A DNA stretch of 64,000 nt from an uncultured Acidobacteriaceae bacterium (GCA_963813905.1 CAWFAY010000014.1:149875-213874); one strand, 5' to 3'. Shown: positions 41,165 to 60,600, counted from the stretch's first letter. Numbers and translations are program-made. The notes: generated by a model from the letters alone, not told the origin.

Positions 41165-41237
41165 CGGGCTGCTCTTTCCAGGCGGGATGCGGCGCGCCTG
41201 ATTGCTGCCCCGGCTGACCCCGGTTATCATTGACTCC

Positions 41238-41636
41238 ATGAATCTCGGCATGCCAGAGATGATTTTCATCTTCTTGATGGCCCTGGTGATCTTCGGGCCC
41301 AAGAAGCTTCCCGAATTGGGACGCCAGCTGGGCAAGGCCCTCGCCGAGTTCAAGAAGGCCAGCAACGACTTCAAAAACCAGCTCGAAGTCGAAATGATGA
41401 ACATCGAACTGGAAGAGCGGGCCAAGAAGCAGGAAGTCGAGCGCGCGACCGACGAGTCCCAGAAGATTCTTCCTGCCGAGAAGCCGTATGAAACCCTGAT
41501 CGTCCCGGCGCCCGGCGCAGTTAGCCGCGACTCCTTCGAGCCGGTTCCCGACGCAGCCGAGCCCGCAACCGAAGCAGCACTTCCACCCGCCGAGACCCCT
41601 GCCAACGGCAACGCGCGGGCCGTTCCCGATGCCTAA
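41238..41636 (+). CDS. tatA: Twin-arginine translocase TatA/TatB-family subunit
   Basis: MNLGMPEMIFIFLMALVIFGPKKLPELGRQLGKALAEFKKA is the canonical TatA/E/B N-terminus. The long acidic/Pro-rich tail is more TatB-like. Confidence 0.85.
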   Translation: MNLGMPEMIFIFLMALVIFGPKKLPELGRQLGKALAEFKKASNDFKNQLEVEMMNIELEERAKKQEVERATDESQKILPAEKPYETLIVPAPGAVSRDSFEPVPDAAEPATEAALPPAETPANGNARAVPDA

Positions 41637-42554: not shown

Positions 42555-42584
42555 TTGACGACGCTCTCCTATCGAGAGCATAGT
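42555..42584 (+). promoter_or_regulatory. Putative promoter of GloVer paralog 1 (TTGACG-N18-CATAGT)
   Basis: The same -35/-10 architecture and 5'UTR (gggtcat...ccggagg) recur upstream of paralogs 2, 3 and 6, and in degraded form (gggtcac only, no ccggagg) upstream of the 51125 operon. Confidence 0.45.
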
Positions 42585-42626
42585 TCCTAGCAATCCTGGG
42601 TCATCTCCGTTCGCGCCGGAGGTTCC

Positions 42627-44648
42627 ATGCGCCGCCCCATACTGACCTTCCTTCTTTGTTTCATCCTCGCAACGGCGATTGTCTCGCCCGCACAGAGCGT
42701 AACCACGCTCCACAGCTTCAATGGCGCTGACGGAGCTGAGCCTCGTTCAGCTCTAGTGCAAGGCACGGACGGGAACTTCTACGGGACAACGACAGACCTG
42801 GGCACGGTCTTCAGAATCACCCCTGAGGGCACGCTGACCACGCTGCATATCTTCACTGGTGCTGACGGCGGTCTTCCAGTCGGGGGGCTGGTGCAAGGCA
42901 CGGACGGGAACTTCTACGGGACGACCGCAGCGGGCGGGATTTACGGCGGCGATTGTGGCTCAGAAGGCTGCGGCACCGTTTTCAAAATCACCCCCCAGGG
43001 CAAACTGACAACGCTATATATGTTCGAGGGAGCTGACGGTTTGGGTCCCTCGACATCACTCGTCCAAGGCAGCGATGGTAACTTCTATGGGACGACCGCA
43101 GTGGGCGGGATTTACCTCTCTGATTGTGGTTTAAATGGCTGCGGCACGGTTTTCAAAATCACCCCCCAGGGCACGCTGACCACGCTGCACAGCTTTTGCT
43201 CTGAACCCAACTGCTCTGACGGTTCCAGCCCTCGAGCAGCGCTGGTGCAAGCCAGCGACGGAAACTTCTATGGGACCACGTCCGCCGTCGAAGGGCAAGA
43301 GTGCTACAGTGACTGCGGTACTGTATTCAGGATCACGCCTAGTGGCGATCTGACGACGCTACACACGTTCAGCGGCTTTGACGGCACCAGCCCTCAAGCA
43401 GCGCTGGTGCAAGCCAGTGACGGCAACTTCTATGGGACAACCGTAGCAGGCGGAAGAGGCTGCCGGGCTGGTTGCGGCACGGTCTTCAAAATTACTTTCG
43501 GGGGGGTGCTGACCACACTCTACTACTTTTTTTGCGACCAACAAGACTGCTCGGACGGCGCGGCTCCCTATGCGGGGTTGGTGCAAGCCAGCGACGGGAG
43601 CTTCTACGGAACCGCCACATTTGGGGGGATTAACGTCGATGGTGATGGGACGGTCTTCCGAATCACACCCGGAGGTGTCCTGACCACGCTCTATAAGTTT
43701 TGCGCAGAATACCTGTGCATGGATGGGGGTGTTCCTTATGCGGGGTTGGTGCAAGCCGGCGACGGAAAGTTTTACGGGACTACCTCGGCGGGCGGTAGTT
43801 ACGGCCACAGTTGCGTGCCTGAGTCCTGCGGCACGGTGTTCGTTCTTGATTTGAACCTGGACAGCTTATCCGTGACAATATGCTGCGGCAGCGGCAGCAT
43901 CACGAGCGGCGACGGCTACATCAACTGTGGGGCGGTTTGCTCTCACAGCTATCAGCCTGGAGCTTACGTAACACTAACCGCGACCCCGGCGCAAGGCTGG
44001 GCTTTTTACAGTTGGACCGGCTGCGACAGAATGGATGGCAACTCCTGCGAGTTGACGATGAATCAAGCTCGTATTGCGGCGGCGGCCTTTGCCCCCGCGT
44101 ATCTGCTTTCCGTGTCCAAGGCAGGAAGCGGCTTAGCAATCAGCGGCGACGGGCATATTTATTGTGGCTCGGTGTGCTCCTATTACTATCTCATTGGAAC
44201 ACAGATCGGTCTGACGGCGATTCCCGGCCCTGGCTACACACTTAGCATGTGGACTGGCTGCAACAACGTCAATGGCAATCTCTGCCTGGTCACGATGGCT
44301 GGCGCCAAGAACGTTACAGCCACCTTCACCGCCGCCCAAATCACACTAACTTCGCTGACGTTCATGCCTTCTTATGTAAAGGGGGGCCAGCTGTCGGCTG
44401 GCACGCTTACCCTTTCCGCGCCAGCGCCGCCTGGAGGGCTGGGCGTGGCCCTCAGCAGTGATCATCCCAACGTCGCACATCCGCCGTCATTAGTCCTGGT
44501 TCCCGGGGGCAAGAGTTCCATCGTCTTCGGCGTGAATACATTTCCGGTGAAGACCAACACGACGGTGACGATCACGGCCACAGCGGGCAACTCCCAAGTC
44601 AGCGGGACGTTGACGGTGGGCACGTCGTTTTCGCAATCCGTGAGATGA
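42627..44648 (+). CDS. Secreted GloVer (Gloeo_Verruco-type) repeat protein, paralog 1: 7 repeats, two InlB-B-repeat-like Cys modules, C-terminal Ig-like domain
   Basis: Signal peptide MRRPILTFLLCFILATAIVSPAQS. Seven units of ...P...LVQ..DGNFYGTT..GG....GTVF.ITP.G.LTTL..F. Two SGDG.I.CG..CS..Y...WTGC...G..C modules. Conserved tail ITLTSLTF.PSYVKGG.LSAGTLTLSAPAPPGGLGVALSSDHP... Confidence 0.85.
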   Translation: MRRPILTFLLCFILATAIVSPAQSVTTLHSFNGADGAEPRSALVQGTDGNFYGTTTDLGTVFRITPEGTLTTLHIFTGADGGLPVGGLVQGTDGNFYGTTAAGGIYGGDCGSEGCGTVFKITPQGKLTTLYMFEGADGLGPSTSLVQGSDGNFYGTTAVGGIYLSDCGLNGCGTVFKITPQGTLTTLHSFCSEPNCSDGSSPRAALVQASDGNFYGTTSAVEGQECYSDCGTVFRITPSGDLTTLHTFSGFDGTSPQAALVQASDGNFYGTTVAGGRGCRAGCGTVFKITFGGVLTTLYYFFCDQQDCSDGAAPYAGLVQASDGSFYGTATFGGINVDGDGTVFRITPGGVLTTLYKFCAEYLCMDGGVPYAGLVQAGDGKFYGTTSAGGSYGHSCVPESCGTVFVLDLNLDSLSVTICCGSGSITSGDGYINCGAVCSHSYQPGAYVTLTATPAQGWAFYSWTGCDRMDGNSCELTMNQARIAAAAFAPAYLLSVSKAGSGLAISGDGHIYCGSVCSYYYLIGTQIGLTAIPGPGYTLSMWTGCNNVNGNLCLVTMAGAKNVTATFTAAQITLTSLTFMPSYVKGGQLSAGTLTLSAPAPPGGLGVALSSDHPNVAHPPSLVLVPGGKSSIVFGVNTFPVKTNTTVTITATAGNSQVSGTLTVGTSFSQSVR

Positions 44649-44659
44649 TCGCGATGCTC

Positions 44660-44745
44660 ACTTCTCTACCATGAGCATCGCCATCGCTTGGTTCGTGCCC
44701 CCGGCACAGAGAAGGGAGCGGGCGGCGAAGAACGCGGCGGAATAG
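44660..44745 (+). other. Relic of the tatC 3' end (duplication scar 1)
   Basis: Translates MSIAIAWFVPPAQRRERAAKNAAE*. The genuine TatC C-terminus is VSIAIAWFVHPAQRRKRAEKNAGE* (42344-42433). Confidence 0.85.
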
Positions 44746-44783
44746 CGAGCTACAGCTTCTGAGCCGCTGGCTGCGAAAACTAC

Positions 44784-44812
44784 TTGACACTCTTATGGAT
44801 GTGGGTCATAGT
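44784..44812 (+). promoter_or_regulatory. Putative promoter of paralog 2 (TTGACA-N17-CATAGT)
   Basis: Conserved cassette; see 42555. Confidence 0.45.
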
Positions 44813-44855
44813 TCGGCACCGTCCGCTAGTCATATCCGTTCGGGCCGGAGGTCTC

Positions 44856-46598
44856 ATGCGTCGCGTCGTTCTCGTTCTCGCCTTCTGCACCGCTATGGCT
44901 ATGGCGATTGTCTCGCCTGCACAGACCTTCACCACTCTGTACAACTTCGCGGGATATCCTGAGGGTGATGGCGCTGCTCCGTATGCTGGGCTGATACAAG
45001 CCACCGACGGTAACCTCTACGGGACAACCCTTAATGGCGGGGACTACAACAGTGGCACGGTTTTCAGAATCACGCCCCAGGGAACGCTAACGACGCTGTA
45101 CAGCTTCTGCTCTCAACCCAACTGTACTGACGGCGGCGAGCCGTACGCCGGACTGGTGCAAGCCACTGACGGGAACTTTTACGGAACTACCAGCCTCGCC
45201 GGCGCCGACGGCTATGGCACGGTCTTCAAAATCACCCCAAGCGGCTTGCTGACCACGCTGCACAGTTTCACGGGATATCCGACTGACGGCGCCGAGCCAT
45301 TGGCCGGGCTGCTGCAAGCCAGCGACGGAAGCTTCTACGGGACAACTGTCGATGGCGGGGGGAACAACAATTGTATGAATAATCCTAGTGGCTGTGGCAC
45401 GGTTTTCAAAATTACTCCAGGGGGTACGCTCACTACGCTATACAGCTTCTGTGCTCAATCTGGTTGCCCTGACGGCTCCGGCCCTCACGCCGGACTGATC
45501 CAAGCTACCGACGGCAACTTCTACGGGACAACCTCTGATGGCGGTGCTAACAACGGTGGCACGGTCTTCAAAATCACGCCAAGCGGCACGCTCACCACGC
45601 TGTATAGTTTCTGTGCTGGAGGATTTTTCTGCCCTGACGGCGCTGACCCTCATGCCGGAGTGGTGCAAGCCACCGATGGCAACTTCTACGGGACAACCTA
45701 TTTTGGCGGGGCCCCCTTCACCGGCACGGTCTTCAAAATCACCCCGCAGGGCGTACTGACCACGCTGCACAGCTTTGAGGGCACTGACGGCGCTAACCCT
45801 TATGCCGGACTGGTGCAAGCCACCGATGGAAACTTCTACGGAACAACCTACGGGCTCTACGGTGCTAGTACGGTCTTCAAAATCACCCCGCAGGGCGCAC
45901 TGACCACGCTGCACACCTTCGACTACACTGATGGCCGATACCCTGCCGGCGGGCTGGTGCAAGCCACCGACGGGACCTTCTACGGGACGACCAGCAACGG
46001 CGGGGCCAACGGCGCCGGCACGGTCTTCCGCCTAGACGCGGGACTTGCTGTACTCCTGTCCGTTACGAAGGTTGGCAGCGGCACCATCACCAGCGGCGAC
46101 GGCCACATCTACTGCGGCTCCGTCTGCTCATACACATATAACGGAGGGGCGCAGGTTGGACTAACGCCCATTCCTGCTCCCGGCTACACGTTCAGCGGAT
46201 GGAGCGGATGCGACAACGTGCAGGGCTATGTGTGTGTGGTGACGATGTCGAGTGCCCGAACCGTTACCGCCACTTTCGATGTCGTCCAAATCTCACTCAC
46301 TTCGCTGACCTTCAATCCGTCGTATATAAAGGGGGGCCGACTATCGGTTGCGACCCTTACCCTCAGTGGGCCGGCTCCCTCGGGAGGATTGGGTGTGGCC
46401 CTCAGCAGTGATCATCCCAACGTCGCACATCCGCCGTCATTAGTCCTGGTTCCCGGGGGCAAGAGCTCCATCATCTTCGGTGTGAACACGTTCCCGGTGA
46501 AGAGCAACACGACGGTGACGATCACCGCCACGGCGGGCGCCTCGCAGGTTAGCGGAACGTTGACCGTGGGCACGGGGTATTCGCAATCGGCAAAATAA
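44856..46598 (+). CDS. Secreted GloVer-repeat protein, paralog 2 (7 repeats, one InlB-B-like module, Ig-like tail)
   Basis: Start at MRRVVLVLAFCTAMAMAIVSPAQT, after GGAGG. Seven ..YGTT units. The tail is identical over 71 nt to paralog 1 (46395-46465 = 44445-44515). Confidence 0.85.
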   Translation: MRRVVLVLAFCTAMAMAIVSPAQTFTTLYNFAGYPEGDGAAPYAGLIQATDGNLYGTTLNGGDYNSGTVFRITPQGTLTTLYSFCSQPNCTDGGEPYAGLVQATDGNFYGTTSLAGADGYGTVFKITPSGLLTTLHSFTGYPTDGAEPLAGLLQASDGSFYGTTVDGGGNNNCMNNPSGCGTVFKITPGGTLTTLYSFCAQSGCPDGSGPHAGLIQATDGNFYGTTSDGGANNGGTVFKITPSGTLTTLYSFCAGGFFCPDGADPHAGVVQATDGNFYGTTYFGGAPFTGTVFKITPQGVLTTLHSFEGTDGANPYAGLVQATDGNFYGTTYGLYGASTVFKITPQGALTTLHTFDYTDGRYPAGGLVQATDGTFYGTTSNGGANGAGTVFRLDAGLAVLLSVTKVGSGTITSGDGHIYCGSVCSYTYNGGAQVGLTPIPAPGYTFSGWSGCDNVQGYVCVVTMSSARTVTATFDVVQISLTSLTFNPSYIKGGRLSVATLTLSGPAPSGGLGVALSSDHPNVAHPPSLVLVPGGKSSIIFGVNTFPVKSNTTVTITATAGASQVSGTLTVGTGYSQSAK

Positions 46599-46617
46599 CC
46601 CGTGGCTCATCCGCTCC

Positions 46618-46710
46618 GATGATCATTAGTGGTGGCTAGCAATTGCCAGCGCCTGGTTCGTCCCCCCGGCCCAGAGAAGGAAGCGCGCGGAGAAGGCGGC
46701 CATAGAGTAA
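46618..46710 (+). other. Relic of the tatC 3' end (duplication scar 2)
   Basis: gatcatt...AIASAWFVPPAQRRKRAEKAAIE* parallels the TatC C-terminus. Confidence 0.8.
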
Positions 46711-46768
46711 CCTAGGAACGCCAGCGAGGCTCCGAGAGATGAGCCGAGCCGCCTCACAGGGGAAGGCC

Positions 46769-46797
46769 TTGACGGGACTCGGCGAGTCGGCAATAGT
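46769..46797 (+). promoter_or_regulatory. Putative promoter of paralog 3 (TTGACG-N17-AATAGT)
   Basis: Conserved cassette; see 42555. Confidence 0.45.
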
Positions 46798-46839
46798 TCG
46801 AAGCGTCCTTGGGTCATTCTTGTTCGGGCCGGGGGTCTA

Positions 46840-48834
46840 ATGCGTCGTGCCGTTCTCGTTCTCGCCTTCTGCGTCGTTATCGCGATTGCCTCGCCTGCGC
46901 AAACTCTCACTACCCTTGTAGATTTTGAAGTCCAAAACGGCACTAATCCCGATTCGAATCTCATCGAGGGCACCGACGGAAACTTCTACGGAACAACTTT
47001 CGCCGGCGGGGACGACGGTTCTGGCACGGTCTTCAACATAACCCCCGAAGGCACGCTGACCATACTTCACAGCTTCGATTTTACCGACGGCGCCTACCCT
47101 ACCGCCGGGCTGGTGCAAGCCACTGACGGAAACTTCTACGGGACAGCCCAATATGGCGGGGACAACATCGCTGGCACATTCTTCAAAATCACTCCGGGAG
47201 GCGCATTTACCACCCTGCATAGCTTCGACTACATGGAGGGCGCTTTCCCTTATGCCGGGGTGGCGCAGGCTACTGACGGGAACTTCTACGGAACAACCTT
47301 GCTTGGCGGGGCCGATAATAATGGGACAGTCTTTAACATCACTCCCCAGGGCATTTTGACCAACCTTCATAGCTTCAGCTTCAACGGGACGGACGGCAAC
47401 CATCCTTATGCGGCCCTGGTGCAGGCCACCGATGGGGACTTTTATGGGACCACATTCTATGGCGGCGTGAATAACGATGGCACAATCTTCAAAATCACTC
47501 CCGAGGGCATACTGACCATACTTCACAGCTTCAACGGGACGGACGGCGCTAATCCTTATGCCGGGCTGGTGCAAGCCGCCGACGGGAACTTCTATGGGAC
47601 AACAGAGGATGGCGGCGCGAATAACAATGGCACGGTCTTCAAGATCACTCCCGAGGGCACGCTGACCACCCTGCACAGCTTCGAAGGAACGGACGGCTCT
47701 CACCCTCAAGCCGGGCTGGTGCAGGCCACCGACGGGAACTTCTACGGAACAACCGAAAATGGTGGGGCCCACCTCGACGCTGGCACGATCTTCAGAATCA
47801 CTCCCGAGGGTACGCTGACCACGCTGTACAGCTTTTGCTCTCAGATGGGCTGCGCTGACGGCCGTGCTCCTAACGCAGTCGTGCAAGCGACCGACGCGAA
47901 ATTCTACGGGACAACCTTTGGAGGCGGGCTAGCCGATTGGGGCACGGCATTCCGCCTGGATGCAGGGCTCGGTGCGCTTCTATCCGTAGGCAAGATAGGA
48001 ACCGGCACCATCATCAGCGGTGATGGCCATATCTACTGCGGCAGTACGTGCTCATATACATACCTAAGTGGTACCCAGGTCGGGCTGACCGCCCTTCCTG
48101 CTCCCGGCTACACCTTCAGCAGTTGGACCGGCTGCGACGACGTGCAGGGCGATATATGTGTGGTGAAGATGTCGAGTGCCCGAAACGTTACTGCCACCTT
48201 CGATGTCGCCCAAATCACCCTCACTTCGCTGACCTTCAATCCGTCGTATGTAAAAGGTGGCCGGCTATCGGCTGCCACCCTCACGCTCAGTGCACCGGCT
48301 CCCTCGGGAGGACTGGGTGTGGCCCTCAGCAGTGACCATCCCAGCGTCGCGCATCCGCCATCGTTCGTCATCGTTCCCGGAGGCAAGACTTCGATCGTCT
48401 TCGGCGTGAATACCTTCCCGGTGAAGGTCAACACGACGGTGATGATCACGGCCACAGCGGGCGCCTCGCAGGTCAGTGGAACGTTGACCGTGGGCACTGT
48501 AGCGGCAGAGCATGGCGTCATTCTAACTTGGACTCCATCGACGGGGGACGGAGTTACCACGCAGCAAATATTCCGAGGGCTGGCATCGGGATTGGAAGAC
48601 TACGAGCATCCTTTAGTGGAAATTCAAGACAACATCACGAGCTCCTACTTGGACGCGACAGCGCAGCCAGGAACGACGTACTACTACACGATGAAAGCCT
48701 GTAACGCTGCCGGATGTAGTATCGCTTCGAATGAGGCCAGCAATATGGGCACAAGCGGCAACTTTAAAGCCAATCGGTGCGCGTGTGATTTGAGCAGAAG
48801 CTCAAAGAATACGAGGCCGCAAGCAGGAGACTAG
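46840..48834 (+). CDS. Secreted GloVer-repeat protein, paralog 3, with an extra C-terminal fibronectin-III-like domain
   Basis: Same architecture as the other paralogs. After ...SGTLTVGT it continues VAAEHGVILTWTPSTGDGVTTQQIFRG...TSSYLDATAQPGTTYYYTMKACNAAGCSIASNEAS (FN3-like) instead of GYSQSAK*. Confidence 0.85.
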   Translation: MRRAVLVLAFCVVIAIASPAQTLTTLVDFEVQNGTNPDSNLIEGTDGNFYGTTFAGGDDGSGTVFNITPEGTLTILHSFDFTDGAYPTAGLVQATDGNFYGTAQYGGDNIAGTFFKITPGGAFTTLHSFDYMEGAFPYAGVAQATDGNFYGTTLLGGADNNGTVFNITPQGILTNLHSFSFNGTDGNHPYAALVQATDGDFYGTTFYGGVNNDGTIFKITPEGILTILHSFNGTDGANPYAGLVQAADGNFYGTTEDGGANNNGTVFKITPEGTLTTLHSFEGTDGSHPQAGLVQATDGNFYGTTENGGAHLDAGTIFRITPEGTLTTLYSFCSQMGCADGRAPNAVVQATDAKFYGTTFGGGLADWGTAFRLDAGLGALLSVGKIGTGTIISGDGHIYCGSTCSYTYLSGTQVGLTALPAPGYTFSSWTGCDDVQGDICVVKMSSARNVTATFDVAQITLTSLTFNPSYVKGGRLSAATLTLSAPAPSGGLGVALSSDHPSVAHPPSFVIVPGGKTSIVFGVNTFPVKVNTTVMITATAGASQVSGTLTVGTVAAEHGVILTWTPSTGDGVTTQQIFRGLASGLEDYEHPLVEIQDNITSSYLDATAQPGTTYYYTMKACNAAGCSIASNEASNMGTSGNFKANRCACDLSRSSKNTRPQAGD

Positions 48835-49114
48835 CCGAATCGAAAGCATTGTTTGTTCTCTGTCGCGAACTTCCCATCCGGACCCTACATCCCCGGCTGC
48901 CCAAACAAGTGGTAGTTGGTGTTCAGCGTTGTCACAACCACCTCGTTGGCCGCAACGTCCAACCCCGCCTTCCCTGCGGTCATTGATTGACCTATCCGAC
49001 GAATCAGCGCAAACTAGCGTCAGCACTGGCCGTCCCCGACATCCTCCCAGTTGTCGGTGGATGAATAGTCTCCCAGATATGCAGTCTCCCTTGCTTGGAC
49101 CAGGCAGAGGTATC

Positions 49115-50794
49115 ATGCGCCACACGCTTATCCTGTTTTGCGTCTGCGCGGCGCTCGCGATCGCCGCCCCCTCACAGGATCTGACCACGTTAGTGAGTTT
49201 CAATGGCGACAACGGCGCCTATCCCGTTGGGACTCTTGTGCAGGGCACTGACGGCAACCTTTACGGAACTACCAAGAGTGGCGGGACCGCCAACAGCGGC
49301 GGTACGGTCTTCCAAGTCACGCCGAATGGCACGCTGACCATCCTCCACAGCTTCGGCAGCCAACAAGATGGCGCTGAGCCTCTTGCAGGCCTGGTGCAAG
49401 CTGCCGACGGGAACTTCTATGGAACAACCCTCTATGGGGGAACCGGCGGCTACGGAACAGTATTCAAAGTGACTTCCGACGGCAGCTTGAGCACGTTGCA
49501 CAGCTTCGCAGTGGCCGACGGCTACCAGCCCTATGCCAGGCTGATACAGGGTGCAGATGGGAACTTCTACGGGACAACCGTCTACGGAGGCTCCAGCAAT
49601 TCCGGCACTGCCTTCCAAATTACTCCAGGGGGAACGCTCGCTACCCTGCATGGCTTCCGCAATCTGGGCGAAGGCCGCAAGCCTTACGCAGGGCTGGTGC
49701 AAGCTACCGACGGAAACTTCTACGGCACAACTCGCGAGGGCGGGAGCGCGGGCTATGGCACGGTCTTCAAAATCACTCCCCAGGGGACGCTCACCACCCT
49801 GCACAACTTCGATTACGCGGACGGCGCCTACCCTTACGCGGAGCTGATACAAGCCACCGACGGAAACTTCTACGGTGTCACCTACTATGGCGGAGCCAAC
49901 GACCAAGGCACAGTCTTCAGGATTACTCCCGATGGTACGCTGACTGTCTTGCACAACTTCATCTGTACGGATGGCTTGTTCGCCAATGGGTTAATACAGG
50001 CTGCGGATGGGAACCTCTATGGGACAACTATGTTTGGTGGCAATACCCAGGACTGTTTGGCCGGGTGTGGGACCATCTTCCGAATCAGTCCACAGGGAGG
50101 CGAGCTGACAACCCTGTACAGCTTCAGCGGTAGCGACGGCGCCGCCCCATCGGGTTTAGTCGAAGTCACCGATGGCGAGTTCTACGGGACCACCGGCAGT
50201 GGCGGGGCCTTTAATGATGGCACCGTCTTCCGCCTGGTCGCTGGTGCTGTTCTGTCCGTGATGAAGTCGGGCCTGGGCACCGTCACCAGCGGAGATGGGT
50301 ACATCCACTGCGGCAATACATGCGCGTATACCTACCTGGGTGGATCCCAGGTAGGGCTGACGGCCCTCCCAGCTCCCGGCTACACGTTCAGCAGTTGGAC
50401 CGGCTGCGACAACGTGCAAGGCGATATATGTGTGGTGAAGATGTCGAGCGCCCGAAATGTTACCGCCGCCTTCGATGTCGCCCAAATCACACTGACTTCG
50501 CTGACGTTCAATCCGTCGTATGTAAAAGGTGGCCGACTATCGGCTGGCACGCTCACTCTCAGCGCGCCGGCTCCCCCCGGAGGACTGGGCGTGGCTCTCA
50601 GCAGTGATCACCCCAGCGTCGCACATCCGCCGTCATTAGTCCTGGTTCCCGGCGGCAAGAGCTCTATCGTCTTCGGTGTGAATACCTTCCCGGTTAAAAC
50701 CAACACGACGGTGACGATCACGGCCACGGCGGGCGCCTCGCAGGTCAGCGGAACGTTAACCGTGGGTACGGGGTATTCGCAATCGGCGAAATAA
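49115..50794 (+). CDS. Secreted GloVer-repeat protein, paralog 4
   Basis: Start at MRHTLILFCVCAALAIAAPSQD. Seven ..YG(T/V)T units, an InlB-B-like module, and the conserved tail ending GYSQSAK*. Confidence 0.85.
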   Translation: MRHTLILFCVCAALAIAAPSQDLTTLVSFNGDNGAYPVGTLVQGTDGNLYGTTKSGGTANSGGTVFQVTPNGTLTILHSFGSQQDGAEPLAGLVQAADGNFYGTTLYGGTGGYGTVFKVTSDGSLSTLHSFAVADGYQPYARLIQGADGNFYGTTVYGGSSNSGTAFQITPGGTLATLHGFRNLGEGRKPYAGLVQATDGNFYGTTREGGSAGYGTVFKITPQGTLTTLHNFDYADGAYPYAELIQATDGNFYGVTYYGGANDQGTVFRITPDGTLTVLHNFICTDGLFANGLIQAADGNLYGTTMFGGNTQDCLAGCGTIFRISPQGGELTTLYSFSGSDGAAPSGLVEVTDGEFYGTTGSGGAFNDGTVFRLVAGAVLSVMKSGLGTVTSGDGYIHCGNTCAYTYLGGSQVGLTALPAPGYTFSSWTGCDNVQGDICVVKMSSARNVTAAFDVAQITLTSLTFNPSYVKGGRLSAGTLTLSAPAPPGGLGVALSSDHPSVAHPPSLVLVPGGKSSIVFGVNTFPVKTNTTVTITATAGASQVSGTLTVGTGYSQSAK

Positions 50795-50910
50795 CAGAGG
50801 CTCGTCCGCGAATCTAACTCAAGATCGTCGGGTGCCCCATCCAAGCCATCGTTTGGCTTGGGCGGGAGTTCTGCAAACCGTCACTCGGAGGGCGCGGTCC
50901 CGAAAATTCC

Positions 50911-50939
50911 TTGACAGAGTTTCTCCGCTAAGACGTAGT
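50911..50939 (+). promoter_or_regulatory. Putative promoter (TTGACA-N17-CGTAGT) of the 51125-54602 operon
   Basis: Same -35/-10 architecture, followed by gggtcac rather than the fuller gggtcat...ccggagg 5'UTR seen upstream of the GloVer genes. Confidence 0.4.
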
Positions 50940-51124
50940 AGGGGCACTCTGGGTCACATTTTGGAGCTACCTTGGCGTCCTAACTCTTTCTTGTGGGTGT
51001 TGTCCTGAGCCCAGCAGCAATTCCGTTGATCCGTTATCCGCTTAGCCGCGCGCGTCGCGAATCGCGTCTGGGAGAGCTTGCGGCGCTCTCTTCCCCTCGG
51101 CAGACCAGAAAGAGCAGGAGACTC

Positions 51125-51646
51125 ATGAAATTCGTCCAGCTACTGATCGTCGCAGCCGTATTGGTGCTGGCTGGATTTGACAGCTGCGGCGGAATGCCCA
51201 CGCCCGGTACAAACAACAACAGCTACGATTTCGGCCAGCGTCTTGGCGCTGTTGTCTCCATGCAGCCTGGGCCGCCGTCGTACACGTTCCCTTCGTGGTC
51301 AGGTGACAGCCCCGGCATCCGCATTGATCAGGTACAACAGTTTTCGTCAACTGCGCACCCAACCGGAACCGACATTAATCAAGTCACTACACAGGTGGTT
51401 TTTGGCCAAGTCACGGGTCCGATTGGCGACAAGGTGGTTGTTGTCTATAGCTACACCAACAATTACTACGTCCAGCCCTTAACCAGTACCACGATCAACA
51501 TCGCCGGCGACTTAACCTGGACAGCACCAGCCAATCCCGGCAATATCACGGAGCTGTTGGTAAAGCAGGGTTACTCATTGCCTGACACGACTTCTAGTTT
51601 ACCAGCCATCGATAGTGTGAATGTATTTGCGATGGCGGGTCAGTGA
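51125..51646 (+). CDS. Small secreted/lipoprotein-like hypothetical protein
   Basis: AGGAG precedes the ATG. MKFVQLLIVAAVLVLAGFDSCGG is a signal peptide with Cys. Shares a Y..TN.YYVQP motif region with the N-terminus of the next protein. Confidence 0.6.
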   Translation: MKFVQLLIVAAVLVLAGFDSCGGMPTPGTNNNSYDFGQRLGAVVSMQPGPPSYTFPSWSGDSPGIRIDQVQQFSSTAHPTGTDINQVTTQVVFGQVTGPIGDKVVVVYSYTNNYYVQPLTSTTINIAGDLTWTAPANPGNITELLVKQGYSLPDTTSSLPAIDSVNVFAMAGQ

Positions 51647-51732
51647 ACACGTTACGAAGCGGAGTACTGCGCATCACTATATAGAGCAACTTAGAAACAT
51701 TCTGAGTCCACGGACTCGTCCGCAAGGTTTCG

Positions 51733-52827
51733 ATGGGACGTCACAACCTGCTTCTCCGATTGTTGATCATAGCGACGACGCTGACGCTAGTTCGCTGCGG
51801 TGGTAGCAACAATAACAACACCCAGACGATGAATAATGGCGGACAGAATATGCAAGCGCCGTCAGTCATGCTGAACACACCCAGCCCGGGAGCGAGTCAG
51901 CTCTCAGGCCGTGTTTCGGGTGTGGACAACAGTAAATACAAGGTTGTAATTTATGCCTTGACCAACCAATGGTACGTTCAGCCATTCGCCGACGCTCCTT
52001 ACACCAACATAATATCCTCTGATGGATCATGGAGCAGCTCGACAAACCCTTGGCAGAGCCTCGTGGTGCTGCTGGTTGACCCGAACATCTACAAGCCCGC
52101 GGCGACGGAGATCACCAACCCGGCACTGGATGCGAACGTTGCTACTTACACTGTGTACCCAGCAGGTCCGGTCAGTGTGATGTTTAGCGGTTTCACCTGG
52201 GGAATCAAGACTACGGGAACCGCGCCGAGCGATCATTTTGATCCCGGCCCGAACTTCTGGTCGAATGATCCATCTGTGGTCCACGTCGCCAGCGACGGTC
52301 TCCACTTGAAGCTTAGTCAAATTAATGGAGTGTGGCAGTGCGGCGAAGTTTACCTCACACGATCGCTTGGATACGGTACCTATACCGTGCAAGTCAACTC
52401 ACGCCTCGATCAGCTCGATCAGAATACCGTGGCCGCCCCGCTGTTCATTTACGCCGCGCCTGGACAGGAGCTGGATAACGAGTATAGCGGTCTCGGGGGG
52501 CTTGTTCCCGCGCCGAATAACGCCCAGTTCGTAGTCCAGCCGTACACCGTGCAGGGGAATATCAAGTATTATTTGCAGCCGGCCGCCACTCAAATAACAA
52601 CGCAGATGGAGTGGCGTTCCGACCACGTAACCTTTCGTGCATGGAATGGGTGGGCGACCACGCCCGCTTCCACCGACATCATTTACCAATGGTCCTACAT
52701 GGGAGGAAACATCCCTCCCGTCGGCCAGGAGCGCGTACATATCAACCTGTGGCTGCTGAGTGGCAGCGCGCCGACTGGTGGTAGCGGTGACGAGATGGTG
52801 ATCAATTCTTTTGTGTTCCAGCCGTGA
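51733..52827 (+). CDS. Lipoprotein with a concanavalin-A-like / GH16-like domain
   Basis: Signal plus LVRCGG. The C-terminal roughly 230 aa contain GQELDNEYSG (an ExDxE-type GH16-like motif) and a beta-sandwich pattern. Its stop overlaps the next gene's GTG (GTGA). Confidence 0.55.
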   Translation: MGRHNLLLRLLIIATTLTLVRCGGSNNNNTQTMNNGGQNMQAPSVMLNTPSPGASQLSGRVSGVDNSKYKVVIYALTNQWYVQPFADAPYTNIISSDGSWSSSTNPWQSLVVLLVDPNIYKPAATEITNPALDANVATYTVYPAGPVSVMFSGFTWGIKTTGTAPSDHFDPGPNFWSNDPSVVHVASDGLHLKLSQINGVWQCGEVYLTRSLGYGTYTVQVNSRLDQLDQNTVAAPLFIYAAPGQELDNEYSGLGGLVPAPNNAQFVVQPYTVQGNIKYYLQPAATQITTQMEWRSDHVTFRAWNGWATTPASTDIIYQWSYMGGNIPPVGQERVHINLWLLSGSAPTGGSGDEMVINSFVFQP

Positions 52828-54602
52828 GAGGGGGCTGCGTGAGGAAACTCGTTCTCGGGGCGATGGTTTGTGGCTTAATAGCGTTCTGGGCCACAGCAGG
52901 GCTTGTCTCGGAGGCACAAACCCTCACCACGTTGGTGGACTTCAACGGTACCAACGGTAGCTCGCCTTCGTTTTCGGCTCTTGTGCAAGGGACCGACGGC
53001 AACTTCTACGGGACGACCGTCGATGGCGGCCTCGGCGGCCGGGGCACGGTCTTCAGAATGTCCTCAAGCAACCAGTTGACGACGCTGTGGAGTTTTCTTG
53101 GTCCGTATGACGGCATAAATCCCAGAGGTGGTTTGGTGCAAGGCAGCGACGGGAATTTCTACGGAACCACCTCTTTGCTCGGAACCCACGGTCGGGGCAC
53201 TGTCTTCAAAATCACGCGAGACGGCATGCTGACACCGCTGTATAGCTTCAGTGGCTCTGACGGCGCTTATCCAGAAAGTACCCTGGTCCTGGCCCGCGAC
53301 GGAAATTTTTACGGAACCACGCGCAATGGGGGAACTGACAATAATTGCTTTAACGGATGTGGCACGATTTTTCGGATAACCCCGGCAGGCGTGCTCACTA
53401 CGCTGCACAGCTTCAGCTACATCAGCGGTCATTATCCTGTCGGGGCATTGGTGCAAGCTATCGATGGGAACCTCTACGGAACCACTAACGGTGACGGGTT
53501 TTTCGGTTCCGATATGGCATTCAAAATCAGCATACAGCCCCCATACACGCTGACTCCGCTGCACGTATTCGACTTTTACAGCGACGGTGGTTTTCCCAAT
53601 GGCGGCCTCGTGCAGGCTGCGGACGGGTACTTCTACGGTACGGCAGAATATGGGGGGAGCAGCAGCAACTGCAGCTTTGATCGCTGTGGCACCGTCTTCA
53701 AGATGACCCCTGATGGTCAGCTGACGCCTATGCATAGCTTCGCAGGCACGGACGGGGGCGTACCTATCGGCCCGCTAGTGCTCGCCACAGACGGCACTCT
53801 CTATGGGACCACCGAGGAGGGCGGAACTGGTCTCAATTGTACGGAGGGCTGTGGCACTGTGTTCCAAATCATCCCGGAGTCGCCGTACACGCTGACCACG
53901 CTATATAACTTCGACAGTGCTGATGGTGCTAACCCGAACAGCGGGCTGCTGCAAGTCACCAGCCCTGAATTCTATGGAACAACTGCTGCAGGCGGGTCTG
54001 GCGGGAACTGTATGGGTGGCTGTGGCACGATCTTCAGCCTCTCACTTCCACCGGTCACGCTGTCCGTGAGCAAGACGGGCAACGGCACCGTCATCAGCGG
54101 CGATGGGTACATCTATTGCGGTGAAATGTGCTCCTATCTGTACATTCATGGCACGCGAGTCGGGCTGGTGGCCGTTCCTGCTCCCGGTTACACGTTTAGC
54201 AATTGGACTGGCTGCGACAACGTGCAGGGCGATGTATGTGTGGTGGCGATGTCGAGCGCCCGAGACGTTACTGCCACTTTCGATGCGACGCAAATCACAC
54301 TGACTTCGCTGACGTTCAAGCCTTCTTACGTAAAGGGCGGGCAACTGTCGGCTGGCACGCTCACGCTCAGTGGTCCGGCTCCCTCGGGAGGACTGGGTGT
54401 CGCCCTCAGCAGTGACCATCCCAACGTCGCGCACCCTCCGTCGTTGGTCCTGGTTCCCGGGGGCAAGAGCTCCATCGTCTTCGGTGTGAATACCTTCCCG
54501 GTTAAAACAAACACGACGGTGATGATCACGGCCACGGCGGGCGCATCGCAGGTCAGCGGAACCTTGACCGTGGGTACGGGGTATTCGCAATCGGCGAAAT
54601 GA
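52824..54602 (+). CDS. Secreted GloVer-repeat protein, paralog 5 (most divergent propeller)
   Basis: GTG at 52824, or an in-frame GTG at 52839. Signal ...GLVSEAQT, seven ..YGT(T/A) units, InlB-B-like module, conserved tail GYSQSAK*. Confidence 0.8.
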   Translation: MRGGCVRKLVLGAMVCGLIAFWATAGLVSEAQTLTTLVDFNGTNGSSPSFSALVQGTDGNFYGTTVDGGLGGRGTVFRMSSSNQLTTLWSFLGPYDGINPRGGLVQGSDGNFYGTTSLLGTHGRGTVFKITRDGMLTPLYSFSGSDGAYPESTLVLARDGNFYGTTRNGGTDNNCFNGCGTIFRITPAGVLTTLHSFSYISGHYPVGALVQAIDGNLYGTTNGDGFFGSDMAFKISIQPPYTLTPLHVFDFYSDGGFPNGGLVQAADGYFYGTAEYGGSSSNCSFDRCGTVFKMTPDGQLTPMHSFAGTDGGVPIGPLVLATDGTLYGTTEEGGTGLNCTEGCGTVFQIIPESPYTLTTLYNFDSADGANPNSGLLQVTSPEFYGTTAAGGSGGNCMGGCGTIFSLSLPPVTLSVSKTGNGTVISGDGYIYCGEMCSYLYIHGTRVGLVAVPAPGYTFSNWTGCDNVQGDVCVVAMSSARDVTATFDATQITLTSLTFKPSYVKGGQLSAGTLTLSGPAPSGGLGVALSSDHPNVAHPPSLVLVPGGKSSIVFGVNTFPVKTNTTVMITATAGASQVSGTLTVGTGYSQSAK

Positions 54603-54610
54603 ACGTAAGG

Positions 54611-54702
54611 ATGCATTCTCTACCTGGTAAGTATCGCCATCGTCTGGTTCGTCCACCCGGCACAGCGAAGGAAAGCGGTCAGCGAAGAATGCGGGAGAGT
54701 AG
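54611..54702 (+). other. Relic of the tatC 3' end (duplication scar 3)
   Basis: Translates ILYLVSIAIVWFVHPAQRRKA.... TatC has IILYLVSIAIAWFVHPAQRRKRA.... Both are followed by tagccc. Confidence 0.85.
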
Positions 54703-54762
54703 CCCAGGAACGCTAGCGATGCTCCGAGAGAAAAGAGCCGAGCCGCCTCACGGGGAAATGCC

Positions 54763-54791
54763 TTGACACCACTCGCCGAGTAGGCGATAGT
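54763..54791 (+). promoter_or_regulatory. Putative promoter of paralog 6 (TTGACA-N17-GATAGT)
   Basis: Conserved cassette; see 42555. Confidence 0.45.
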
Positions 54792-54834
54792 TCGAAAGCA
54801 TTCTTTGGGTCGTTACTGGCCGGCCGGAGGTTCT

Positions 54835-56506
54835 ATGCGGCGTGCCATTGTCGTGCTCGCCTTCTGCACCGCTATCGCGATTACCTCGCCCGCTCAAACC
54901 CTCACGACCCTGGTGAATTTCGACGGAGCCAACGGTTATGCTCCGAGTTCGACTCTCATCCAGGGCACCGACGGGAACTTCTACGGGTACCGCGAGCGAG
55001 GGCGGGGCTAACGGCGAAGGCACGATCTTCAACGTTACCTCCGATGGCAAGCTGACTACCCTGCACGACTTCGATTTCGCCGACGGCGCTACCCCTTTTG
55101 CGGGGCTGGTGCAAGCCACCGATGGGAACTACTACGGAACAACCTTCCTTGGCGGAGCCGATTTCGATGGCACCGTGTTCAAAATCACCCCCGACGGCAC
55201 GCTGACCACCCTGCATAGCTTCGGCACCGCCAACGGCGGCGTTAACCCTAATGCCGGGCTGGTGCAAGCCACCGACGGAAGCTTCTATGGGACAACCGTT
55301 TCTGGCGGGCCGGGGTCCAGCAATGGCACAGTCTTCAAAATCTCTGCCGACGGCACGCTGACTGCCCTGCACAGCTTCAACGGCGCGGATGGATCTTACC
55401 CTTATGCCGGGCTGGCGCAAGCCACCGACGGAAACTTCTACGGGACAACCACCCTTGACGGGGCGCACGGCAGCGGCACCGTGTTCAAAATCACCTCCGC
55501 GGGCGTACTGACCACTTTATACAGTTTCGCCGGAACGGATGGCTCTAACCCTTATGCCGGGCTGGTGCAAGCCACCGATGGGAACTTTTATGGGACTACT
55601 TTCCATGGCGGGTCGAATAACGACGGTAGCGTCTTCGAAGTCACGCCTGGGGGCGCGCTGACCATCCTGCACAGTTTCGCCGGAGCGGATGGCTCTAACC
55701 CCTATGCCGGGTTGGTGCAAGCCACCGATGGGAACTTTTATGGGACTACTTTCTATGGCGGAGCCAATAACGATGGTACCGTCTTCCAAATCACCCCTGC
55801 GGGCGTGCTGACCACCCTGTACAGTTTTGCCGGAACGGATGGCGCTAACCCTTATGCCGGGCTGGTGCAAGCTACCGACGGGAACTTTTACGGCACAAAC
55901 GTCAGCGGCGGAGCCAGCAACGAGGGCACGGTCTTCCGCTTCGACACCGGCCTTTTTGCCGGCCTGTCGGTGACCAAGGTGGGCAACGGCACCGTCATCA
56001 GCGGCGATGGACACATCTACTGCGGCGGCGTCTGTGCCTATCCGTACCCTAAAGGAATACAAGTCGGGCTGACCGCCGTTCCGGCCCCCGGCTACACCTT
56101 CAGCGGTTGGACTGGCTGCGACAACGTGCAAGGCGATGTATGTGTGGTGATGATGTCGAGCGCGAAGGCTGTAACTGCAACCTTCGATGTTGCGCAAATC
56201 ACGCTGACTTCGCTCACGTTCAAGCCGTCGTTTGTAAAGGGTGGCCAGCTCTCCGCAGGAACGCTAACCCTGAGCGCTCCGGCGCCTCCTGGCGGACTGG
56301 GTGTCGCTCTCAGCAGTGATCATCCCAGCGTCGCACATCCACCATCATTCGTCATCGTTCCCGGAGGCAAGAGCTCCCTCATATTCGGTGTGGTCACCTT
56401 CCCGGTGAAGGTCAACACGCCAGTGACGATCACAGCAACAGCGGGCGCATCGCAGGTCAGCGGAATGTTGACTGTGGGCACATCATTCTCGCAATCGGCA
56501 AAATAA
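54835..56506 (+). pseudogene. Secreted GloVer-repeat protein, paralog 6, frame broken inside the first repeat (54985-54990)
   Basis: MRRAIVVLAFCTAIAITSPAQT...IQGTDGNFYG then stops. The family sequence (T)ASEGGANGEGTIFNVT... continues in another frame. tacgggTaccgcg has one extra base. Confidence 0.8.
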
Positions 56507-57613: not shown

Positions 57614-60600
57614 ATGCAACAGCTCAACCTGAAGCCCACGCACAAGCTCGTGAAAAACTACTACGAGGCGCTGGGCCAATTCGGCCAATTAAACATTGAT
57701 CACGAGATGGCAGTGCGTAGCGCCTTCCAATCGCTGCTTGCCGGATGCGGCCGCCAGTTCGACTGGACGTTGGTTCCCGAATACGCCATCAACCGGCCAC
57801 CCGCTCGGCTCATCAAGGTTGATGGCGCCATGCTCGACACCTTTCGCCTGACGCACGGTTTCTGGGAGGCCAAGGACGAGCACGATGATCTCGAAAAGGA
57901 AATCCGCCGCAAGTTAGATCAGGGCTATCCGCGCAACAACATCATCTTCCAGGCGCCCGAGCGGGCCGTGCTCATCCAGAACGGAATTCGGCAGGGATTG
58001 CCCGACGATATACGCGACTCCGGCAACCTTGTAGAGCTACTCAAATCGTTCTTCGCCTATCGCGAGCCACATCACGAAGAGTGGGACGAAGCGGTCGCCG
58101 AATTCAAAATTCACATACCCGAGATCGCCAAGGCGGTGCAGGAGAAGATCGAAGAGCAGCAACGGACCAATCCTGCTTTCGTCGAGCGCTTCAAGTCCTT
58201 CTACGAGGTCTGCCGCCAGTCCATCAATCCCAACCTGTCAATCGAAGCGGTCGAGCGGATGCTGGTACAGCATCTGCTGACTGAGCGGATCTTCCAACGC
58301 ATCTTCGACAACCCCGATTTCACCCGCCGCAACGTGATTGCCGTAGAAATCGAAAAGGTCATCGAGTCGATGACCGCCAAACAGTTCAGCCGCAACGCTT
58401 TCCTTAAAGACCTGGATCGTTTCTACAAGGCCATCGAGCTTGCGGCCGACAATACCGAGGATTACAGCGAGAAGCAGCACTTCATCAACACTGTCTACGA
58501 GCGCTTCTTCCAAGGCTACTCGCCCAAAGAGGCCGATACCCACGGCATCGTCTACACGCCGCAGCCCATCGTGGACTTCATGGTGCGCAGCGTGGAAGAC
58601 ATTTTGCAGAAAGAATTTGGGCGCTCCCTCAGCGACAAAAGCGTCCACATCCTTGACCCCTTCGTGGGTACCGGAAACTTCATCACGCGAGTGATGAAGG
58701 AGATCAAGACCAGCGCTCTGCCCTACAAGTATGAGAATGAACTGCACTGCAACGAGGTGATGCTACTGCCGTACTACGTGGCTTCGATGAATATCGAGCA
58801 CGAGTACATGGAGCGGACCGGCGAGTACAAGGCGTTTCCTGGGATTTGTTTGGTGGATACGTTTGAGCTCGCAGAAGCACAGCAGCGCGGACTCTCGTTC
58901 ATGACAGAAGAGAATACGGCGCGAGTTAACAAACAAAAGGAGTCGCCGATCTTTGTAGTGATGGGCAATCCGCCGTACAACGCTGCGCAGGACGTGGAGA
59001 ATGACAGTAACAAGAATCGTATTTACCCACTTCTCCGAAGACGTGTCTGGGACAAGTACGCCGTAGGCTCGAAGGCTACGCTGCTGAACACGCTAAGCGA
59101 CCCATACATCCAAGCATTTCGATGGGCAACCGACAGGTTAGGTGCGAGCGGTATTGTTGCATTCGTCACAAACGGGCGCTATCTCGACGGAGTTGCGACC
59201 GATGCCATGCGACGATGCATCGCGACAGAATTTGACAATGTTTACGTCATCGATCTGGGAGGAGACGTTCGACGGAATCCAAAGCTATCAGGAACAACCC
59301 ACAACGTATTCGGCATTCAGGTCAATGTTGCGATCAGTCTTCTTGTGCGTACCGAAGCAAATACCGGTACGCCAAGACGGGCGAATGTCCTCTACAGGCG
59401 CTTGCCAGAATATGCACGCAGGGAGCAGAAGTTCGCGTATTTGGATCAGGCGGAGTTCGACCATACATGGCAGCGGATCCCAATCTTGCCAAGTGGGGAT
59501 TGGCTGGTTGGCGAAGCCCAAACCAACTTCGCATCGTTGCTACCTCTAGGCACGAAAGAAAGCAAAGGGGCATCGCAGCAAGATGTCGAGGCCGTGTTCA
59601 AGCTCTTTAGCAATGGCGACAAAACGAATCGGGATACTTGGGCATTCAACTTCGATCCTGAGGCGCTTAAAAAAAACATCTGCCGAACGATCAGCTTTTA
59701 CAACGAACATGTTGATCGGCTGCGCCGGTCGAAATCCCGAAAAATAGATGTGGACGCATTTGTCACCAACGACGACAAGAGTATTAGCTGGAGTGGCGAT
59801 CTCAAACAGTCGCTTGAGAGATTTGTCTCAGCGGAATTTGCCATTGAGAAAGTTCGTCGCGCCTATTACCGTCCGTTCACGGCCTGCTGGCTCTTCTTCG
59901 ATAGAGTCCTCAATAATAGGGTTTACCTGTTGCCGCACGTGTTCCCAGATCCGAGGAGCGAAGGCCAGAACCTCGCAATTGGCGTAACAAGCCACTTGCA
60001 ATCACCTTTTGCGACCCTGATCGTCGACAGGCTTCCGTGTCTTGATTTCGGGGGTAGGCCTAGTCAATTCTTTCCGTTCTACGCCTACAAAGAAGACGGC
60101 TCGAACCGCCGCGAGAACATTACCGATTGGGCGCTGAACGAGTTTCGCAAACACGACGACGACCCGAGCATCACCAAGTGGGACATCTTTCATTACGTCT
60201 ATGCAGTGCTGCATCATCCCGAGTATCGCGAGCGCTACGCCGCCAACCTAAAGCGTGAGCTGCCCCGCATCCCGTTTGTGGGGGCTGGTGTGGGTAGAGC
60301 TGGCCTTCAGGCCAGCGTTCCAGCCGATCCCACATCCTCCAGAGCCGGGCTTCAGCCCGGCGGCACGGGGTCTAGCGGCCGCGCTGCCTTGGGTAGCCCC
60401 GGCCTTCCGGCCGGGGAACAGAATCGCGCCGAAGGCGCTTCCTCTCTGCCGAAGGCTAACGCGCAGCCGCCGGCGGAGCGTTACAAGCAGATCCCTCAGG
60501 GGCTCAAGCCCCTTCGGGATAACAAATCATTGGGTGTACCGGAACGCGGGCCTGAAGGCCCGCACTACCCGGAATCGGGGCACGGCCCGCAATGTACCGC

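Follow-up and report, generated by a model that had tools for sequence, protein, structure and literature searches.

Proteins of the GloVer family, which is described by the NCBIfam model TIGR03803 (Gloeo_Verruco; 'choice-of-anchor tandem repeat GloVer-containing protein'), have either 7 or 14 repeats and a variety of C-terminal modules. They are very numerous in soil and peat Acidobacteriota, in Verrucomicrobiota and in other phyla, with at least 8000 candidates at E <= 1e-10. Here we analyse a 64-kb window (the whole stretch of 64,000 nucleotides, from an uncultured Acidobacteriaceae bacterium, GCA_963813905.1 CAWFAY010000014.1:149875-213874) in which six GloVer genes are arranged in tandem. 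The original prediction, made for this window, held that neither the repeat nor the Cys-rich module of these proteins has an established function. This agrees with the literature, where no paper mentioning TIGR03803 or Gloeo_Verruco was found and the 'choice-of-anchor' papers concern other families, and with the absence of any sequence relative with a solved structure.

Among proteins of known structure, the Photorhabdus lectins PLL and PHL (PDB 5c9o, 6rg2, 6t96, 8q83, 5mxh) have the same seven-bladed fold, built from a repeat of about 50 amino acids (aa) with four strands. The sugar sites of the PLL lectins lie between adjacent blades, their binding is driven by avidity and relies on conserved Trp residues, and several homologues are found per genome (PMC12203525). 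The PLLs bind fucosylated or O-methylated sugars and are built without a stalk, Cys modules or a recognised signal peptide; the GloVer proteins are without the Trp of the PLL sites. The surface-layer protein of Methanosarcina mazei (PDB 1l0q) also has a seven-bladed head followed by Ig-like domains and can be aligned over 563 columns, but it is archaeal, belongs to the YVTN repeat family and superposes poorly (TM 0.31/0.45, root mean square deviation 20 A). The Cys modules resemble the InlB B-repeat/Flg_new_2 family (PF18998) in scoring above its gathering threshold and in varying in copy number as in a spacer; they differ in having four conserved Cys in every module here, and no function is known for this divergent subfamily.

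The array is a further instance of the catalogued, uncharacterised GloVer family, in which gene arrays are common. Its six proteins differ from the family at large in carrying a cassette of InlB-B-like and Ig-like modules, the Ig-like part of which is modelled by no library. What is added here is a variable slot, a stalk of variable length, homogenisation of the tails within a genome, a lead to the propeller lectins and a GH16-like neighbour of one paralog. The computations of this work cover the architecture of the proteins, their membership of the family, the predicted fold, purifying selection, the divergence of the loops, the variation in copy number between the flanks and the clustering of the tails by genome.

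On this basis the array proteins may well be modular, non-enzymatic, multivalent binding proteins, most likely lectin- or adhesin-like, a reading that we favour while holding it at slightly less than even confidence. Each gene would specify a Sec-exported, disulfide-stapled binding protein with a closed seven-bladed head on a stalk, the stalk consisting of one or more InlB-B-repeat-like modules and then an Ig-like domain. The 42 blades would keep a common framework and specificity would reside in variable B-C and D-A loops on one face, each paralog displaying a different, probably multivalent, binding surface, for which the most likely ligand would be a glycan or other polymer. Head-plus-stalk cassettes that include their promoters would be duplicated and lost within a fixed chromosomal slot delimited by tatC and a radical-SAM gene; the heads would diverge and the 3' stalk and tail segments would be kept alike by gene conversion.

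Architecture of the six proteins

The six genes are all present on the + strand within positions 42627-56506 of the window, in tandem and with one common architecture, as had been predicted. The coordinates of the paralogs, and the parts of p2, are as follows.

42627..44648, + strand: paralog p1, 673 aa; signal peptide, 7 blades, 2 Cys modules, Ig-like tail; 26 Cys
44856..46598, + strand: paralog p2, 580 aa; the copy whose structure was modelled
44856-44921, + strand: signal peptide of p2
44922-46046, + strand: propeller of p2
46047-46286, + strand: Cys module of p2
46287-46595, + strand: Ig-like tail of p2
46840..48834, + strand: paralog p3, 664 aa; common architecture with a C-terminal FN3-like extension (~48520-48834)
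49115..50794, + strand: paralog p4, 559 aa; upstream region unlike that of the other paralogs; N-terminus MRH, without twin arginine
52824 (more likely 52839)..54602, + strand: paralog p5; most divergent head
54835..56506, + strand: paralog p6; an extra T at 54988 shifts the frame, the rest is intact

Together the paralog genes amount to 10.9 kb, close to the 11 kb claimed at first. The picture of a six-gene tandem array holds for the six paralogs, but two unrelated genes lie between p4 and p5 and p6 is frameshifted at 54988. An exact copy of the p2 protein is found in a public protein collection (P0001).

TIGR03803 matched seven stretches in each of the six proteins with 322-441 bits (E 2e-98 to 2e-135; curated cutoff 44 bits), and independent blade anchors likewise gave seven blades in every paralog. 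Both the family and the count of exactly seven repeats had thus been correctly recognised, and only the repeat length has to be revised, from the 40-45 aa given originally to a period of 45-61 aa, about 50. The blade consensus, xDGxxPxAGLVQATDGNFYGTTxxGGxxxxGTVFKITPxGxLTTLHSF, contains no Trp. Since the mature N-terminus, (Q)TLTTLxxF, reads like the outer strand of a blade and blade 7 is without that strand, we infer from the sequence that the N-terminal strand closes the propeller ring.

A short signal peptide precedes the propeller in every paralog, as expected. In p1-p4 and p6 it has 21-23 aa and consists of MRR or MRH, a hydrophobic core and then SPAQ or APSQ; in p5 it has about 26-31 aa, depending on the start codon. 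Close Cys pairs (C-x3-6-C) occur in some B-C and D-A loops. Many of the 26 Cys of p1 are in extended B-C loops closed by C-x3-5-C pairs, and both p1 and p5 have Cys-bridged insertions in B-C/D-A loops. Pairing of the Cys, and an even Cys count in five of the six mature proteins, fit an oxidising compartment and, together with the short N-terminal signal peptides, a putative extracytoplasmic location.

PF18998 scored above its gathering threshold of 23.6 bits in all six proteins (35.8-70.3 bits), with two copies in p1, which supports the earlier assignment of the Cys module to the divergent InlB B-repeat. Each module has four conserved Cys, arranged as C-x3-C and C-x7-C pairs, and because these pairs are conserved two disulfides are expected per module.

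Relatives were sought in species-representative genomes, where at least 585 were confirmed among the 600 pattern matches listed; the best 80 loci (L-numbers below) were analysed. Most of these 80 loci belong to Acidobacteriaceae, Bryobacterales and other Terriglobia, and some to Verrucomicrobiota and other phyla; without exception they come from metagenome-assembled genomes (MAGs), many of which were obtained from peat or bog samples. Genes of the relatives have 7 or 14 blades as a rule. Between head and tail there are 1, 2, 3, 4 or 5 Cys modules, a variation in copy number that therefore suggests spacer-like behaviour. Among the loci examined, the cassette of InlB-B-like module(s) and Ig-like domain is limited to loci of close relatives within the Acidobacteriaceae, L001-L004 and L006.

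The conserved Ig-like tail of the original prediction was recovered with a length of about 100 aa and an identity of 81-94% between paralogs. No Pfam, NCBIfam or PDB sequence match was obtained for the C-terminal 100 aa, and hence no recognisable C-terminal anchor or sorting domain of the kind implied by 'choice of anchor'. A search of 1.84 billion representative proteins with a profile of the tail yielded 15,727 at E <= 1e-3. The best of these are giants, 1-4.6 thousand residues long and with as many as 28 tandem copies; one has an N-terminal polysaccharide deacetylase domain. In L001 and L003 the tail also occurs mid-protein in a fusion of 1830 aa. A role of the tail as a C-terminal sorting or anchor signal was rejected, as it is internal in some relatives and tandemly repeated among the representative proteins. 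Judged by this distribution, the tail is a general extracellular Ig-like repeat of a very large family without a Pfam or NCBIfam model.

The two fusion open reading frames (ORFs) of about 1830 aa (L003 11911-17424 and L001 3346-8838) share one layout: propeller, 3 Cys modules, tail, a region of about 590 aa, 5 Cys modules and tail. The 467-aa core of the middle region had no Pfam match; the region looks like a second, unrelated head on a similar stalk. In the window, p3 alone runs on beyond the usual stop, with an FN3-like extension of about 95 aa (about 48520-48834; weak fn3 match, E 0.025) that ends in a short basic, Cys-containing stretch.

Predicted fold and possible role of the heads

An AlphaFold2 model of p2 was built with 43 homologues (predicted local distance difference test, pLDDT, 92.1; predicted template-modelling score, pTM, 0.82). 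Its all-beta propeller region (residues 24-394) is followed by a beta module (398-476) and a beta sandwich (481-572). The model supports the seven-bladed propeller that had been proposed, with two beta-sandwich modules behind it. When the model was compared with the PDB using Foldseek, the seven-bladed Photorhabdus lectins PLL, PLL2, PLL3, PLL5 and PHL ranked first (E 5e-10 to 5e-8, TM 0.63-0.69 normalised on the lectin, identity 13-15%). Rank 4 was the Methanosarcina surface-layer protein, a YVTN propeller followed by PKD domains (E 4e-9), and sialidases and lactonases came close behind the lectins. By sequence, phmmer found no relative of the whole protein in the PDB, the best weak match being the gluconolactonase PpgL (E 0.15), and a single-blade profile gave merely marginal PDB matches to a generic L-x-A-x-DG-x-x-Y hairpin (BamB and others). 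The six proteins stand outside the PLL family, though they may have a similar mode of action.

Divergence between the paralogs was analysed by partitioning the propeller codons according to their position within the repeat, followed by calculation of the pairwise ratio of nonsynonymous to synonymous substitution rates (dN/dS) for each partition. Strands together with the A-B and C-D turns had an aa identity of 67-80% and a dN/dS of 0.11-0.20, against 31-47% and 0.35-0.57 for the B-C and D-A loops, which means that the rate of evolution is about threefold higher in the loops than in the framework. In the standard propeller topology the B-C and D-A loops are on the top face and the A-B and C-D turns on the bottom face, and by analogy the diverging loops would be placed together on the top face. 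The earlier description of the propeller faces as the diverged part is therefore retained for the putative top-face loops and dropped for the putative bottom-face turns and for the strands.

With a dN/dS of 0.11-0.30 in all paralog pairs, those of p6 included, the genes are clearly under purifying selection. Blades evolving neutrally, as in pseudogenes, are not what was found, and the values for framework and loops indicate that the genes are functional. Diversifying selection on the blade loops, which had also been suggested, was not detected by the partitioned pairwise dN/dS: no partition exceeded 1, but dS was so saturated in most pairs (0.8 to >2) that the test was not a fair one.

Three further observations concern the role of the head. 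The propeller columns that are invariant in the 43 homologues are all occupied by consensus Gly, Tyr, Phe or Asp residues of the repeat, with the one exception of Q23, a Gln at the predicted signal-peptide cleavage site, and there is no blade-specific invariant His, Glu, Lys, Ser or Cys that would mark one active site. The 42 blades of the array are almost equally alike, with 57% identity between different blades of the same protein, 60% between blades at the same position of different proteins and 55% where both protein and position differ; such near-equal likeness is characteristic of repeat lectins rather than propeller enzymes. The domains fused to GloVer propellers across the family are dockerin, SLH, PKD, TIG, fn3, Ig and FG-GAP, none of which is catalytic. 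Because the invariant columns belong to the framework only, the blades are equally alike and the fusion partners are non-catalytic, a displayed binding head is favoured; we infer a binding rather than a catalytic role, with a glycan as the putative ligand.

The strongest competitor, which we nevertheless consider unlikely, is that these are structural proteins of a surface coat or matrix (S-layer-like or a biofilm scaffold), in which the propeller serves as a packing unit and the paralogs give antigenic or structural variety. The surface-layer protein at Foldseek rank 4, with the same head-plus-Ig layout over 563 columns, is consistent with this, as are the SLH domains at the end of some family members and the tail domain itself, whose up to 28 copies in giant proteins are typical of surface fibres. 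However, the six proteins showed neither a self-assembly signal nor an anchor. A set of six diverged heads, of which four are preceded by homologous promoter-like sites of their own, is more in keeping with a range of specificities than with a lattice, and the dockerin-bearing relatives point to recruitment into complexes.

Alternatively, the propellers could have a central active site and be enzymes of a lactonase-, sialidase- or glycosidase-like kind, for example, with substrates that differ between the paralogs. Lactonases, DFPase, sialidases and GH43 are among the Foldseek matches (E 1e-8 to 1e-5), the PpgL match points the same way and a GH16-like gene adjoins p5. These enzyme matches are, however, mostly 5- or 6-bladed with lower TM, and no catalytic-family Pfam or NCBIfam model matched the six proteins. 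Seven blades that are 55-60% identical to one another are unlike known propeller enzymes and, besides Q23, there is no blade-specific invariant polar residue, the invariant columns being those of the repeat framework. An enzymatic function is consequently improbable.

The slot between tatC and the radical-SAM gene

The array is bordered and interrupted by the following features.

41202..41636, + strand: tatA (PF02416 TatA_B_E, E 6e-19); left-flank context, syntenic in L003, L004 and L006
41629..42433, + strand: tatC, with a 1-bp insertion near 42004 that splits the gene; conserved left border of the array
42555..42584, + strand: promoter-like site of p1, TTGACG-18-CATAGT
44784-44812, + strand: promoter-like site of p2, homologous to that of p1
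46769-46797, + strand: promoter-like site of p3, homologous to that of p1
54763-54791, + strand: promoter-like site of p6, homologous to that of p1 (each of the four sites 43-44 nt before the ATG)
50993..51646, + strand: 217-aa ORF unrelated to GloVer, between p4 and p5
51733..52827, + strand: lipoprotein-like gene, 364 aa, GH16-like predicted fold, ExDxE motif; directly upstream of p5
57614..60904, + strand: Type ISP restriction-modification enzyme (PF18135, PF22240, PF02384), between the array and the right flank
61886..62980, + strand: AmmeMemoRadiSam radical-SAM gene (TIGR04337, 480 bits); conserved right border

As had been noted, tatA and tatC adjoin the array directly on its upstream side. 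The tatA-tatC left flank is common to L003, L004 and L006, with tatC 90-95% identical, and orf799 lies farther upstream in L003 and L006. The radical-SAM gene of the right flank is found in L001, L003, L004 and L006 with 93-94% identity. Between these flanks the window has 6 GloVer copies, L001 at least 5, L003 4-5, L004 4 and L006 a single one; the slot between tatC and the radical-SAM gene is a copy-number-variable hotspot. In the window it also took up two unrelated genes and the Type ISP gene. The latter encodes coupler, N6 methylase and Type ISP C-terminal specificity domains on a stretch with a GC content of 0.53, and is regarded as an insertion because the syntenic loci have no equivalent of it. 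Among the relatives, arrays of two to six tandem GloVer genes are common (L015, L028, L054, L062, L065, L066 and L069, for example), so the striking local expansion first reported stands as to its six copies but is less exceptional than was suggested.

The regions upstream of p1, p2, p3 and p6 are homologous and contain the pattern TTGAC(A/G)-17/18-NATAGT ending 43-44 nt before the ATG, with the ribosome-binding site GGAGG in p1, p2 and p6 and GGGGG in p3. Promoter-like matches in the region are not above the shuffled expectation, and the case for these sites rests on conserved position and upstream homology; on that ground the duplicated unit would include the promoter.

The six tails of the window form a single clade. 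Among themselves, within one genome, they have a nucleotide identity of 0.83, compared with 0.68-0.74 to tails from other genomes, and their dS is 0.37-0.88 against 0.84-2.7 for the heads. The heads do not cluster by genome, and the head tree is poorly resolved. The simplest explanation would be gene conversion that homogenises the 3' part.

The position of the array could also be taken to mean a functional coupling to tatA-tatC, with propellers that fold in the cytoplasm and leave by the twin-arginine translocation (Tat) pathway. The array lies directly downstream of tatC in the window and in L003, L004 and L006, and four of the six N-termini start with MRR. But the adjacency is seen in 3 of the 80 related loci and the other 77 are without a tat gene within 10 kb, so it is explained by shared ancestry in one lineage and not by a functional link. 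The twin-arginine motif is defined as S/T-R-R-x-F-L-K after an extended n-region, and none of the six proteins has it in conserved form: RR is at residues 2-3 in four of them, with RH in p4 and RK in p5. A signal peptide of 21-23 aa that has its RR at positions 2-3 and is strongly hydrophobic in its core, as in p1-p4 and p6 (RH in p4), is Sec-like. Furthermore, the many paired Cys argue for folding in an oxidising compartment and four paralogs have promoter-like sites of their own. Export would thus be by a Sec-type signal peptide, and a coupling to Tat is very improbable.

Single-base frameshifts are found in the array and next to it. In p6, deleting the extra T at 54988 restores a protein of 556 aa that aligns without gaps with the other paralogs. 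In tatC, profile positions 1-98 are in one frame and 100-208 in another (ctgccc-g-ttcatg), whereas tatC of L003, L004 and L006 is in one frame. Split ORFs also occur in the related MAGs, in GloVer genes (L001, L003, L004), in the radical-SAM gene (L001, L004) and in other flanking genes; judging by their 'MFD' names, these MAGs may be long-read assemblies. As indels are common in such MAGs, a broken tatC is biologically unlikely and the dN/dS of p6 is like that of the other paralogs, p6 is not read as a pseudogene; its insertion is likely a sequencing error, and that in tatC probably a sequencing or assembly indel.

The propeller DNA is 58-71% identical between paralogs (tail DNA 78-89%) and the longest exact stretch common to any two copies is 71 nt, which excludes an assembly artefact of collapsed or duplicated copies. 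That the array is decaying junk or falsely duplicated repeats is suggested by the frameshift in p6 and the split GloVer ORFs of L001, L003 and L004, but this is hardly credible given five intact frames, six clearly distinct copies, purifying selection in all pairs including p6, arrays in the same slot of four other genomes, and indels in genes as unrelated to the array as tatC and the radical-SAM gene, which indicate sequencing error and not decay.

Several points nevertheless weigh against multivalent binding proteins in a cassette locus. The lectin fold match is real yet generic for seven-bladed propellers, since lactonases, sialidases and the YVTN S-layer protein score nearly as well; the sugar-stacking Trp pairs of PLL are absent, identity to PLL is as low as 13-15% and phmmer and profile searches gave no match to any PLL. 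Loop dN/dS stays below 1, and the faster change of the loops may be relaxed constraint and not diversification. No recognised outer-membrane export or anchoring signal was found in the six proteins. Among 101 ORFs flanking GloVer genes no neighbour gene family is conserved, the most frequent being seen 3 times; the gene calls for these ORFs were heuristic and sometimes picked an antisense ORF. The poor resolution of the head tree weakens the incongruence argument for gene conversion. Finally, the position of p5 behind the GH16-like gene is the sole direct hint of a glycan context, and it rests on one operon: two independent genomic contexts of GH16-like homologues are without a GloVer, tail or Cys-module gene.

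A broader proposal is that the GloVer propellers are a large unrecognised class of multivalent bacterial lectins, and that the slot from tatC to the radical-SAM gene serves as a cassette locus, with glycan-receptor heads being duplicated, diversifying and changing places on a conversion-homogenised stalk. This is possible, and distinctly more doubtful than the binding role as such. If true, soil acidobacteria would have a rapidly evolving repertoire for recognising polysaccharides or cell surfaces. The locus is in any case compact, combining six diverged heads, a common stalk and copy-number variation between fixed flanks. Should the heads be lectins or adhesins, they would help to explain polymer and surface recognition by abundant soil bacteria and would constitute a new propeller lectin family; should they not be, the array is a well-described ordinary paralog expansion.

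Genes within and around the array

The product of the gene at 51733-52827 was modelled with AlphaFold2 at pLDDT 88. Each of its first 36 Foldseek matches is either a GH16-type enzyme or an Rv0315-like pseudo-glucanase, the closest being GH16 lichenases and laminarinases (E 4e-7, TM 0.65). Of the E-x-D-x-E motif, D248 and E250 are present without exception in 41 homologues and E246 in at least 90% of them. No Pfam, NCBIfam or PDB sequence match was obtained, even at E <= 1, and thus none to a GH16 sequence model. The family is well conserved and contains 364 proteins at E <= 1e-5, of which the 120 listed are 53-85% identical. On the modelled fold and the conserved residues, the gene probably encodes an unclassified beta-glucanase. 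A general linkage of GH16-like and GloVer genes was rejected on account of the two independent contexts mentioned above; one weak co-occurrence is found in L073.

The ORF at 50993-51646 had no Pfam or NCBIfam match. Upon reading of the translations, its C-terminal part resembles the N-terminal domain of the 51733-52827 product (YxxTNxxYVQP).

Two start codons are possible for p5: GTG at 52824, which is 4 nt before the stop of 51733-52827 and overlaps with it, and GTG at 52839, which is 12 nt after that stop, is preceded by GAGGGGG and agrees better with the other N-termini. For p5 no separate promoter-like site was found. Because its start overlaps or adjoins the stop of 51733-52827 and such a site is missing, p5 is probably co-transcribed with that gene.

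In the left part of the window a 403-aa ORF is found at 39176-40387, the last 39 residues of which align in another frame in L003, L004 and L006; it may contain a further indel or represent a fused gene pair.

Antisense ORFs of 223-349 aa run through the GloVer genes at 46837-47886, 49190-49954, 53064-53735 and 55517-56197, all on the - strand. Their translations are repetitive mirror images of the blade repeat, and these ORFs most likely arise as a side effect of the GC-rich, repeated coding sequence rather than being genes.

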